Assembly: GCA_964016885.1 (NCBI GenBank)
Contig: OZ024748.1
Coordinates: forward strand, 31,558,001-31,622,000
DNA length: 64,000 nt
DNA from: Eledone cirrhosa
Lineage: Eukaryota
Reading direction: 5' to 3'
Both the position numbers and the translations under genes were made by a program. Under the pieces are notes generated by a model that worked only from the letters and a program-made list of their open reading frames with translations, ran no database searches and was not told the origin of the DNA. This document shows positions 1 through 3,750 of this stretch, in pieces; positions within the stretch are counted from its first letter, which is position 1; each line of letters begins with the position of its first letter.

Positions 1-277
1 TATGTACACACACACAGAAACAAAATGGCGTAGGACAGAACAAAGGAGAGGCACAGAAACAAAGAAAGGAATCCCCAGTCACTGAAGAGGTCACAGAGTG
101 TGTGACGAAAGAACTATGACTATATATAAACAACTATCTGGTTGTGGAACCAACCAACCAACCAGAAATTTATAAATTTATAAATTTATTATAAATTTAT
201 TATAATAAATTGAAGTGAAAGCAACTGGTGCGTGTGTTTCTTATTGGCAACATGACCCTCCCAAAGTATAACAATAT
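1..277 (+). mobile_element. PLE family A terminal repeat (pLTR) fragment
   Basis: Near-identical to the 3' repeat after the RT/GIY-YIG ORF (about 19025-19298); ends at AAAGTATAACAATAT fused to (AT)n. Confidence 0.9.
77..121 (+). ncRNA. Minimal type-I hammerhead ribozyme, family A (other copies 1188-1232, 15049-15092, 19094-19137, 26356-26400, 54483-54527 on +; 51054-51098 on -)
   Basis: AGUCA-CUGAAGA-G-GUCAC(loop)GUGAC-GAAA-GAAC-UA^UGACU: stem I AGUCA/UGACU, core boxes, stem II, very short stem III; HHRs in PLE pLTRs are established. Confidence 0.8.
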
Positions 278-748
278 ATATATATATGTATATATATATA
301 TATATATATATATATACATATGTATATATATATATATATATATATATATATATATATATATATATATATATATATATATATATATATATATATATATATA
401 TATATATATGTATATATATATATATATGTATATATATATATATATATATATATGTATGTATATATATATATATGTATATATATATATATATATATATGTA
501 TGTATATATATATATATATATATATATATATATATGTATATATATATATATATATGTATATATATATATGTATATATATATGTATATATATATAAGTATA
601 TATATATATATATATGTATATATATATGTATATATATATGTATATATATATATATGTATATATATATATATATATATATGTATATATATATATGTATATA
701 TATGTATATATATATATATATATATATATATATATATGTATATATATA
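278..748. repeat. Interrupted (TA)n microsatellite (representative; many more tracts occur, the largest between 35490 and 55855)
   Basis: Direct reading; source of the spurious poly-IY ORFs. Confidence 0.99.
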
Positions 749-1117
749 GGCTGCTCAGCCGTTAATTTTCATAAGGAAAGTATATACTTTCGAACGTTCA
801 ACTATCTGGCAGATGGGTAAACGGTGCTGATGATAGCTAACAAGCTTGAAACTAGTACATCGTTCCTGTGTCAGTGTTGAACAAAAAGGTGACGTGGTTG
901 CCTTAACACCGTATGGCATAAATTCAGGCTGTTCGCTTCGTTGACAAACAAACGAACAAAGCGGCCGGCGTTATAATAAACGTAGGCTAAACTGATGCGT
1001 GCATATATGTATGTATACCTGTATGCATATGTGTATATATATATATATATATATATATGTGTGTATATATATATATATGTGCATGCTACTGTACGTCTGT
1101 ATACATATATGTATGTA
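747..1117 (+). mobile_element. Retrozyme-like family H, partial monomer
   Basis: Matches the 5' part of the tandem unit at 1809-3750; contains the HHR at 821-863. Confidence 0.85.
821..863 (+). ncRNA. Type-I hammerhead ribozyme, family H (copies 1883-1925, 2388-2430, 2886-2928, 3424-3466, 11537-11579 on +; 10997-11039 on -)
   Basis: ACGGUG-CUGAUGA-U-AGCU-AACA-AGCU-U-GAAAC-UA-GUA^CAUCGU; palindromic ACUAGU at stem III. Confidence 0.88.
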
Positions 1118-1388
1118 CACACACACAGAAACAAAATGGCGTAGGACAGAACAAAGGAGAGGCACAGAAACAAAGAAAGGAATCCCCAGTCACTGAAGAG
1201 GTCACAGAGTGTTAGACGAAAGAACTATGACTATGTATAAACAACTATCTGGTTGTGGAACCAACCAACCAACCAGAAATTTATAAATTTATAAATTTAT
1301 TATAAATTTATTATAATAAATTGAAGTGAACGCAACTGGTGCGTGTGTTTCTTATTGGCAACATGACCCTCCCAAAGTATAACAATAT
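1113..1388 (+). mobile_element. PLE family A pLTR fragment fused to family H
   Basis: Repeat of 1-277 with the same TATGTACACACA junction; its HHR stem II is mutated (GTGAC to TAGAC). Confidence 0.9.
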
Positions 1389-1808
1389 ATATATATATGT
1401 ATATATATATATATATATATATATATATACATATGTATATATATATATATATATATATATATATATATATGTATATATATATATATATATGTATATATAT
1501 ATATATATATATATATGTATGTATATATATTTATATGTATATATATATATATATATATATGTATATATATATATATATATATATATATGTATATATATAT
1601 ATATATATATATGTATATATATATATGTATATATATATGTATATATATATAAGTATATATATATATATAGTATATATATATGTATATATATATGTATATA
1701 TATATATATGTATATATATATATATATATATGTATATATATATATGTATATATATGTATATATATATATATATATATATATATATATATATATATATATG
1801 TATATATA

Positions 1809-3750
1809 TAGGCTGCTCAGCCGTTAATTTTCATAAGGAAAGTATATACTTTCGAACGTTCAACTATCTGGCAGATGGGTAAACGGTGCTGATGATAGCT
1901 AACAAGCTTGAAACTAGTACATCGTTCCTGTGTCAGTGTTGAACAAAAAGGTGACGTGGTTGCCTTAACACCGTATGGCATAAATTCAGGCTGTTCGCTT
2001 TGTTGACAAACAAACGAACAAAGCGGCCGGCGTTATAATAAACGTAGGCTAAACTGATGCGTGCATATATGTATGTATACCTGTATGCATATGTGTATAT
2101 ATATATATATATATATATATATATGTGTGTGTATATATATATATATCTGCATGCTACTGTACGTCTGTATACATATATGTATGTACGTATACATACATAC
2201 TTACATTTAAGTAAGTGCCATACTAAGAGTGAGAAATGAAATTTCGTTTTCATTTTTTTTCAACTAATCGTTTTCGGTATGCCTGACCGATTTAACTCAC
2301 TCAATATGCAAATTAGGCTGCTCAGCCGTTAATTTTCATAAGGAAAGTATATACTTTCGAACGTTCAACTATCTGGCAGATGGGTAAACGGTGCTGATGA
2401 TAGCTAACAAGCTTGAAACTAGTACATCCTTCCTGTGTCAGTGTTGAACAAAAAGGTGACGTGGTTGCCTTAACACCGTATGGCATAAATTCAGGCTGTT
2501 CGCTTTGTTGACAAACAAACGAACAAAGCGGCCGGCGTTATAATAAACGTAGGCTAAACTGATGCGTGCATATATGTATGTGTACCTGTATGCATATGTG
2601 TATATATATATATATATATATATATGTGTATATATATATATATGTGCATGCTACTGTACGTCTGTATACATATATGTATGTACGTATACATACATACTTA
2701 CATTTAAGTAAGTGCCATACTAAGAGTGAGAAATGAAATTTCGTTTTCATTTTTTTTTCAACTAATCGTTTTCGGTATGCCTGACCGATTTAACTCACTC
2801 AATATGCAAATTAGGCTGCTCAGCCGTTAATTTTCATAAGGAAAGTATATACTTTCGAACGTTCAACTATCTGGCAGATGGGTAAACGGTGCTGATGATA
2901 GCTAACAAGCTTGAAACTAGTACATCGTTCCTGTGTCAGTGTTGAACAAAAAGGTGATGTGGTTGCCTTAACACCGTATGGCATAAATTCAGGCTGTTCG
3001 CTTTGTTGACAAACAAACGAACAAAGCGGCCGGCGTTATAATAAACGTATTCTAAACTGATGCGTGCATATATGTATGTGTACCTGTATGCATATGTGTA
3101 TATATATATATATATATATATATATATATATATATATATATATATATATATATATATATATATATATATATATATATATATGTGCATGCTACTGTACGTC
3201 TGTATACATATATGTATGTACGTATACATACATACTTACATTTAAGTAAGTGCCATACTAAGAGTGAGAAATGAAATTTCGTTTTCATTTTTTTTTCAAC
3301 TAATCGTTTTCGGTATGCCTGACCGATTTAACTCACTCAATATGCAAATTAGGCTGCTCAGCCGTTAATTTTCATAAGGAAAGTATATACTTTCGAACGT
3401 TCAACTATCTGGCAGATGGGTAAACGGTGCTGATGATAGCTAACAAGCTTGAAACTAGTACATCGTTCCTGTGTCAGTGTTGAACAAAAAGGTGACGTGG
3501 TTGCCTTTACACCGTATGGCATAAATTCAGGCTGTTCGCTTTGTTGACAAACAAACGAACAAAGCGGCCGGCGTTATAATAAAAGTAGGCTAAACTGATG
3601 CGTGCATATATGTATGTGTACCTGTATGCATATGTGTATATATATATATATATATATATATATATATATATATGTGTATATATATATATATATGTGCATG
3701 CTACTGTACGTCTGTATACATATATGTATGTACGTATACATACATACTTA
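1809..3750 (+). repeat. Head-to-tail array of non-coding ~500-bp HHR units (family H, about 3.8 units)
   Basis: TAGGCTGCTCAGCC recurs at 1809, 2314, 2812, 3350; the period varies mainly through an internal (TA)n. Confidence 0.92.

Follow-up and report, generated by a model that had tools for sequence, protein, structure and literature searches.

A one-off local rearrangement joins a PLE-A terminus to the tandem repeat H in Eledone cirrhosa

Layout of the locus

The window is the 64,000-nt stretch G000:C8:31558001-31622000 of the 3.0-Gb Eledone cirrhosa assembly; negative positions lie upstream of it on contig C8. At its left end the tandem repeat H, numbered here on the natural unit at 2315-2812, is joined twice to the pLTR of the element PLE-A (Table 1). 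The pLTR copies discussed below are c0 (at -1600), c1 (at 14), c2 (at 1125) and P, the sister-segment copy (at -37734). The original prediction had noted an H-to-pLTR junction at 1 and at 1112 and, behind each, the pLTR, a similarly interrupted TA tract and the same H start; this is confirmed in the assembly. Positions 1-300 and 1112-1411 are 99% identical, the interruptions of the TA tracts at 275-747 and 1386-1809 come in the same order, and the spacing is 1111 nt between junctions and 1062 nt between H starts (748 and 1810). The accompanying claim of two different hammerhead-like motifs per unit in the same sense also holds, both motifs lying on the forward strand. Local tandem copies other than this unit are frequent within the window. 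Read-derived contigs (four runs, one study) over 900-1270 pass over the junction part, 1020-1135, as repeat and say nothing about it either way.

Table 1. Features at the left end of the window
Feature	Position	Strand	Remarks
Truncated H unit end, ~H 369 (junction copy 1)	1..7	+	Bases 6-7 common to H and pLTR (2-nt microhomology)
PLE-A pLTR copy c1	6..274	+	From (CA)n 5'-end hotspot to short 3' end
Minimal type I hammerhead-like motif of pLTR	77..121	+	Predicted cut after 116
Interrupted (TA)n tract with locus fingerprint	275..747	+	
Truncated H unit	748..1118	+	5' part of H1 type, 3' part bearing the junction; likely made by a crossover
Minimal type I hammerhead-like motif of H	820..864	+	Palindromic stem III; predicted cut after 857
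Junction copy 2	1112..1132	+	Shared bases 1117-1118
pLTR copy c2	1117..1385	+	Four private substitutions, two of which weaken hammerhead stem II
Interrupted (TA)n tract	1386..1809	+	Fingerprint as in 275..747
H tandem array	1810..3750	+	Full units at 1810, 2315 and 2813; last unit, at 3351, ends at H short 3' end
264-nt local duplication, H end and TA tract	3733..4169	+	Orphan H remainder at 3997 begins at H 369
Inverted PLE-B insertion in downstream TA tract	4170..5398	.	Long end left, short end right

Two repeat families and their ends

PLE-A matches RVT_1 (E 4.6e-4 and 8.6e-5) and then GIY-YIG (E 1.9e-4), all below the Pfam cut-offs, and its ORFs are broken in the copies examined. Ahead of GIY-YIG lies a CX4CX2C motif. 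The Neptune/Nematis type is described with a CX2-5CxxC motif at this place in the accessible text of PMC8557442, and the PLE-A motif may point to that type. Its predicted RT, C-terminal GIY-YIG, hammerhead-bearing pLTR and tail are together the features of an EN+ PLE. The pLTR pattern matches at 3,015 places and a shorter pattern at 4,804. The hammerhead core is unchanged in 141 of 162 distinct rows and stem II in 128; common variation falls in the loops, at the outer pair of stem I and at the base of the cleavage site. Rfam returns no gathering-score match in the window and no hammerhead among the 150 listed of 191 weak rows for 1-4200, the weak matches shown being TA-driven microRNA models. 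The pLTR and H motifs are therefore assigned as hammerheads by motif and by their pattern of variation.

H is a 498-nt tandem non-coding unit dispersed in many arrays, and its hammerhead core occurs, by exact match, in at least 10,608 copies in the assembly. Apart from N7, the core is kept in 28 of 31 distinct rows, and GAAAC/stem III in 27. Stem I carries one two-sided change in at least 13 rows, which probably reflects a single event. The minimum free energy (MFE) fold of the isolated motif does not give a hammerhead. The RNA of H is predicted to be strongly self-paired (z -9.9), with z -3.3 and -2.0 for two parts free of the microsatellite. At most a fraction of 0.04 of the searched words occurs in any RNA run, which gives no information on expression or circular RNA either way. 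With its tandem non-coding units and a type I hammerhead by motif, H would be a non-LTR retrozyme-like repeat.

H arrays enter (TA)n at H 386-392 (221 and 864 matches) and at about H 450 (879), compared with four matches for a control of 13 positions elsewhere in H; all counts are for the forward strand, reverse gapped-pattern counts being inflated by double listing. These two 3' ends lie 57-63 nt apart, against tails of 60 nt in PLE-A and 58 nt in PLE-B. Seventeen inverted H arrays were listed. Both ends were resolved in 12 of them, and each of these 12 has one short and one long end, as classed by eye; the five left out comprise three with an end inside the internal TA of H, one open array and one complex array. 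The short end of H lies in TA-rich sequence, and recombination with TA tracts may account for part of its count. A tail at one of the insertion's ends is described for PLEs (PMC8557442; PMC3846280, both in part accessible) and has been traced to two internal RT start sites, according to the available text of PMC11167929. The two fixed 3' ends of H and its inverted arrays make it likely that H is retrotransposed by PLE-type enzymes. This tail signature supports PLE mobilisation of H, and does not name PLE-A.

Comparison of H with the PLE-A and PLE-B ends finds no similarity above shuffles, 32-102 of 200 shuffles scoring as well, so the sequence does not name the partner. An 11-nt word common to H and the PLE-A pLTR was discarded as chance-level (32 of 200 shuffles). 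Of the claim that PLE machinery copies H, mobilisation of PLE type is very likely, from the ends of H, but nothing singles out PLE-A.

Among 30 pLTRs, the first listed on contig C1 rather than a random draw, H lies within 1.5 kb of four and PLE-B as near in three. The four H-pLTR neighbours comprise two convergent pairs, one inverted H array and one same-sense pair; a TA run separates H from the pLTR at two of them (L040 and L057), and gaps of about 400-500 nt do so at the others (L052 and L062). On contig C6, one unit of a 3.9-kb repeat has a 13-unit H array within the TA tract that precedes a solo pLTR. Co-occurrence of H with PLE-A elsewhere is present, but it comes about through shared TA tracts, in either orientation, and PLE-B shows it likewise.

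Origin of the unit

The junction is confined to this locus. A 45-nt junction pattern has two matches in the assembly, both here, and none in controls, so the match is not due to chance; an assembly-wide pattern search allowing 0-60 free bases still finds the same two places. Independent flanks are absent, every copy sharing the resident TA fingerprint and the H1 head. These results do not support a spread of the chimera. Extension upstream, which the original prediction had proposed as a check, did uncover a third pLTR, TA tract and H start, sitting on a native PLE-A body: 1.6 kb upstream lies a 5'-inverted PLE-A, and behind its pLTR c0 come the same TA tract, a single full H unit and a truncated unit that ends in junction 1.

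The unduplicated state survives 36 kb upstream. This sister segment (about -39.6 to -34.1 kb) is near-identical to the locus, with 2 differences in 3471 aligned bases, 3 in 1323, 1 in 2831, 3 in 1413 and 3 in 601, and runs in the order PLE-A, pLTR, TA, H1-H5, TA and LINE. It has no junction, no PLE-B insertion and no 264-nt H-end duplication. The region is a recent segmental duplication. It is conceivable in principle, though the surrounding 164 kb contain no N gap, that P is a falsely placed haplotype; the unduplicated state would be shown even then.

Several markers tie the unit to its own surroundings. The TA fingerprint occurs at four places only in an assembly search, namely P, c0, c1 and c2; three further matches of its pattern are not pure TA, and it is found in none of 19 sampled pLTR short ends. 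Over 263 nt the pLTRs of P, c0 and c1 show no difference, and that of c2 has four substitutions. Identity to the resident pLTR over 167 nt is seen in 1 of 30 sampled copies, and over 160-167 nt in 1 of 88 copies that start at the 5'-end hotspot; the other 87 differ within 160 nt, most of them by position 22-42. Unit markers identify the last four array units as types H1, H3, H4 and H5 of the sister segment, while c0 is followed by H1 and a G268 unit and c1 by one A268 unit. Since the junction is found here only, the TA fingerprint is restricted to four places and the sister segment shows the earlier state, the block was copied from its own locus, and the unit very probably consists of the end of the resident PLE-A, the TA tract next to it and the first part of the adjoining H array. 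The H-pLTR unit is not a mobile chimera. Duplication of pLTR, microsatellite and H head as one unit, by contrast, is a part of the original prediction that is supported.

Microhomology-guided DNA copy-back followed by one unequal crossover is the favoured origin, at a probability of roughly 0.55; like the weights worded below, this figure comes from rough rate estimates rather than a computed model. PLE-A and H first stood side by side in one (TA)n tract without a junction, as in the sister segment. They would have reached that tract separately, both presumably targeting (TA)n, and such a shared target could explain their adjacency. A strand may then have suffered a break or a stall at H 369, where a predicted DNA hairpin has its tip, and jumped back to the CA run of the pLTR through the 2-nt microhomology. 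The pLTR, TA tract and H units would have been recopied, possibly with a return at H 369 that left the orphan remainder at 3997. Crossing over of H1 with the truncated H unit, after position 268, would yield the one-unit middle copy and three copies in total.

Parts of this sequence of events have counterparts at the locus. The unit order, two H units and then one, fits a single crossover. H 369 lies in the loop of the predicted hairpin (-7.2 kcal/mol, calculated without a shuffle control), and the junction falls 17-23 nt short of the nearer fixed 3' end of H. The orphan remainder begins at the same H position as the junction and ends the 264-nt duplication that is absent from P, which fits a break-and-return copy unless the shared position is coincidence. 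Because the truncated H units lack H5 markers, linking junction and orphan needs an extra contraction of the array. Private substitutions number 11 in about 2.7 kb at this locus, compared with 2 in 1.6 kb in the sister copy, and the excess may stem from error-prone repair or consensus error. A foreign donor for the c2 substitutions was rejected: their alleles are found singly, at 62 and at 80 places, and none of 60 fetched loci combines them. The double change of c2 has one further occurrence, in another subfamily. What speaks against a DNA jump is the start of the pLTR side at the 5'-end hotspot of the family, where chance landing is estimated at 1-3%; longer microhomologies, too, were available in the TA tract. 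The homology at the junction is so short that chance often yields 2 nt.

That hotspot recurs across the family. The pLTR begins in its CA run directly after a TA run at 46 places (deduplicated by eye from 70 rows), and a G stands in front at 15 of the 40 of these loci that were fetched. An extra G followed by four AC repeats occurs at 95 places; the 55 fetched resolve into 48 true junctions (39 inversions and 9 others) and 7 substitutions in native context. With T in front of the hotspot there are 60 places, and a script classed 23 of the 40 fetched as native. The extra G is presumably a copied cap and so likely marks the 5' end of a capped RNA.

A start at this hotspot favours an RNA template, which underlies a possible, though less likely, route of RT-assisted local duplication: a read-through transcript from the resident pLTR hotspot would have been copied back into its own locus, or insertion of a solo pLTR cDNA at H 369 would have been followed by its recombination with the resident pLTR, duplicating the TA tract and H head. 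The Penelope pLTR holds an internal promoter able to drive transcription downstream (PMC2377424, accessible in part). Solo pLTRs have moreover inserted just 3' of resident pLTRs (L121 and L306) and within H (L303), and the junction, together with the orphan remainder that shares its H position, would be accounted for by a single insertion. At L303, a diverged solo pLTR with a long tail lies inside an H array with H antisense, flanked by a 252-nt repeat that could be a target duplication or the product of a deletion between tandem units. This second direct H-pLTR junction, made by a foreign solo pLTR at the same hotspot, also speaks against the DNA jump. Yet duplications that start at the hotspot and repeat the flank of the upstream pLTR within 4-5 kb number 0 among 135 loci fetched with hotspot patterns, 105 of them classed non-native, and this lack of a like case disfavours an RNA template. 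Foreign solos mostly diverge from the resident by position 22-42, but c1 and c2 match it for at least 88 nt, and no donor bears the alleles of c2 together. The junction here has no extra G, and the downstream end lies deep inside the TA tract rather than at a PLE or H tail site. Long flanking duplication is clear in only 1 of 51 non-inverted insertions, where deletion in a tandem array is an alternative; long target duplications were accordingly dropped as a routine feature of PLE-A, the one clear case being ambiguous and a token search giving mostly chance-level blocks. The narrower proposal that the PLE-A RT copied read-through RNA, from the 5' end of the resident pLTR across the TA tract and H array, back into its own locus is unlikely. 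If true, PLEs would generate kilobase tandem duplications of their own flanks in cis; H, for its part, would travel as a passenger with the same enzymes, using their two-site start without sharing their sequence.

The remaining explanations fare worse than copy-back and crossover. The original prediction read the junction as a template switch, in which the PLE-A RT moved from its own RNA to H RNA and the chimera was inserted in a TA tract and re-amplified. H and pLTR share one sense, the junction has its 2-nt microhomology and H bears PLE-type ends, all of which would suit such a switch. Even so, the 3' flank is the TA fingerprint and H1 head of the resident locus, the pLTR has the resident's sequence, the pre-junction state is present in the sister segment and no copies exist elsewhere in the assembly. 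Among 165 sampled loci a single further direct junction turned up; H is antisense there, and the site resembles a plain insertion. The junction also lies about 110 nt from the predicted pLTR hammerhead cut site and about 260 nt from that of H. Being far from the cut sites, absent elsewhere and missing from the sister segment, it does not support a template switch, which is the least credible of the readings. Ribozyme ligation as a source of the junction was rejected, the junction lying at neither hammerhead cut site. An assembly artefact, with one or both extra copies from mis-joined or poorly polished reads in TA-rich tandem DNA, is only slightly less improbable than the switch. Long TA tracts, the tandem array and the excess of private substitutions, four of them in the pLTR of c2, could arise in this way. 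However, the 164 kb of contig C8 that surround the locus are free of N gaps, the junction is a novel join that occurs twice, and TA lengths and H markers vary among the copies as one crossover would give.

Implications and comparison with known systems

The chimera is a one-off local rearrangement whose parts are of known kinds, in a region that is unstable, rich in TA and segmentally duplicated. It serves as a warning that adjacency of elements with a common microsatellite target does not prove template switching. That PLE machinery copies H is likely right, with the evidence in the ends of H and not in this junction. An in vitro PLE assay has been published (PMC11167929, accessible in part). 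The ends of H matter more than the chimera: as far as the accessible sources go, the enzyme that moves animal retrozymes has so far been argued from co-occurrence and pLTR similarity. Here, a young family of more than 10,000 copies with a PLE tail signature leads to two predicted reverse-transcription start sites on H RNA.

The rearrangement resembles microhomology-mediated template-switch duplication, which we take to be of the FoSTeS/MMBIR/SDSA type, in that adjacent DNA was copied with 2-nt homology, with a possible return to the break and a later change in unit number. The raised substitution load recalls mutagenic repair synthesis, but the jump here spans at least 1 kb, compared with a backward reach of about 40 nt reported for yeast D-loops (PMC12891019, available text), and lands on a likely transcript start. 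Like the pLTR-mediated capture and trans-mobilisation described for Adineta vaga, it places unrelated sequence between direct pLTRs; that capture moved to a new site with a short target duplication, whereas here the DNA stayed at its own locus (PMC3846280, accessible parts).

PLE-A is like EN+ PLEs in its RT, C-terminal GIY-YIG, pLTR hammerhead motif, inverted structures, one-end tail and (TA)n target, insofar as these are covered in the available text of PMC8557442, PMC11167929, PMC3846280 and PMC2377424. The tails here measure 58-60 nt, against 30-40 nt in the printed accounts. Also unlike those accounts, as far as they are accessible, many solo pLTRs here start at one hotspot with an extra G. 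Chlamys elements are non-autonomous and arranged head-to-tail (PMC8557442, in the part available).

H resembles animal non-LTR retrozymes, as the accessible portions of PMC7229834 and bioRxiv 10.64898/2026.07.22.740005 describe them: it is a low-GC, non-coding repeat of short tandem units, each with a single type I hammerhead-like motif; its dispersed copies run to thousands, its predicted RNA is highly self-paired, and it coexists with PLEs. Its unit of 498 nt exceeds the 150-450 bp given in PMC7229834 but falls inside the 51-972 bp of bioRxiv 10.64898/2026.07.22.740005. Unlike those retrozymes, again within the same portions of text, H has an internal microsatellite and a minimal hammerhead with a palindromic stem III. 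Its similarity to the ends of PLE-A and PLE-B does not rise above shuffles, unlike that of 24 of 57 Xenopus families (bioRxiv 10.64898/2026.07.22.740005, main text as available). The available text of PMC7229834 and of bioRxiv 10.64898/2026.07.22.740005 describes neither fixed paired 3' ends nor inverted arrays, although the supplements of the preprint may list element ends, and the literature searched, largely outside subscription papers and in part accessible, contains no report of tail-type paired ends for a retrozyme. PLEs are called a strong candidate for moving retrozymes in the accessible part of PMC7229834, and the preprint, in the part available, adds co-occurrence and pLTR similarity as arguments (bioRxiv 10.64898/2026.07.22.740005).

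Neighbourhood of the locus

Around the locus, contig C8 carries recent segmental duplications of ~30-40 kb (window -39600 to 84000, negative positions lying upstream), and a satellite of 283-288 nt occurs near the borders of the duplication units. The sister segment, a near-identical duplicate ~36 kb upstream, also holds the diverged inverted array of H, the 498-nt retrozyme-like tandem repeat.

Hammerhead-like cores are found in further repeats of the window. The 629-nt repeat, which is possibly a further retrozyme family, has a CTGATGA...GAAA core in each copy (60101, 60730 and 61359), and the ~524-nt repeat has a hammerhead-like core in its first copy only (58010). 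Cores within the TA-rich stretch lie at 43950, 46709, 50228 (-) and 49516/49631.

Features at and around the locus (window coordinates on C8 unless a locus is named)
Feature	Position	Remarks
Segmental duplication pair	-39.6 to -7.7 kb = -2.9 to 26.7 kb	
Segmental duplication pair	26.5-53.4 kb = 62-84 kb	piecewise match
H array ends in (TA)n, examples	3750; loci L067, L082, L020, L005	
Inverted H array	10750-11783	older and diverged, 85-96% identity
LINE-type frame	12744-13793	RT, then PHD finger match
LINE-type frame	37880-41017	APE-RT, 1045 aa
TA-rich stretch	41100-50900	10 kb, internal repeats 1.2-3.7 kb
~524-nt tandem repeat	57951-59294	
629-nt tandem repeat	60001-61697	~2.7 copies, flanked by TA tracts

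H beside the PLE-A pLTR at other loci

A second direct junction between H and pLTR-A, the pLTR of the Penelope-like family PLE-A, is present at L303 (G000:C7:32508109), where a foreign solo pLTR sits within an H array, H is antisense and a 252-nt repeat flanks the pLTR. On contig C6, loci L156-L160 (G000:C6:11.03-11.05 Mb) form a tandem repeat with a period of 3.9 kb and a solo pLTR in every unit; one unit harbors a 13-unit H array within the TA tract preceding the pLTR. Of the words sampled from window 748-1390, a fraction of 0.24-0.46 recurs in runs whose labels name ten other organisms, so pLTR-A or H may be common to related species.

Start hotspot and fixed ends

Genome-wide, pLTR-A copies that are solo or inverted share a single 5' hotspot in the CA run (L116-L155, L161-L215), frequently with an extra G; this hotspot is likely the capped transcript start. 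Across the genome, H arrays run out into (TA)n at either of two fixed H positions, which lie ~60 nt apart, and all 12 of the 12 inverted H arrays with resolved ends combine one short with one long end. Inverted copies of PLE-A and of a second Penelope-like family, PLE-B, likewise pair a short end with a long end, as H arrays do.
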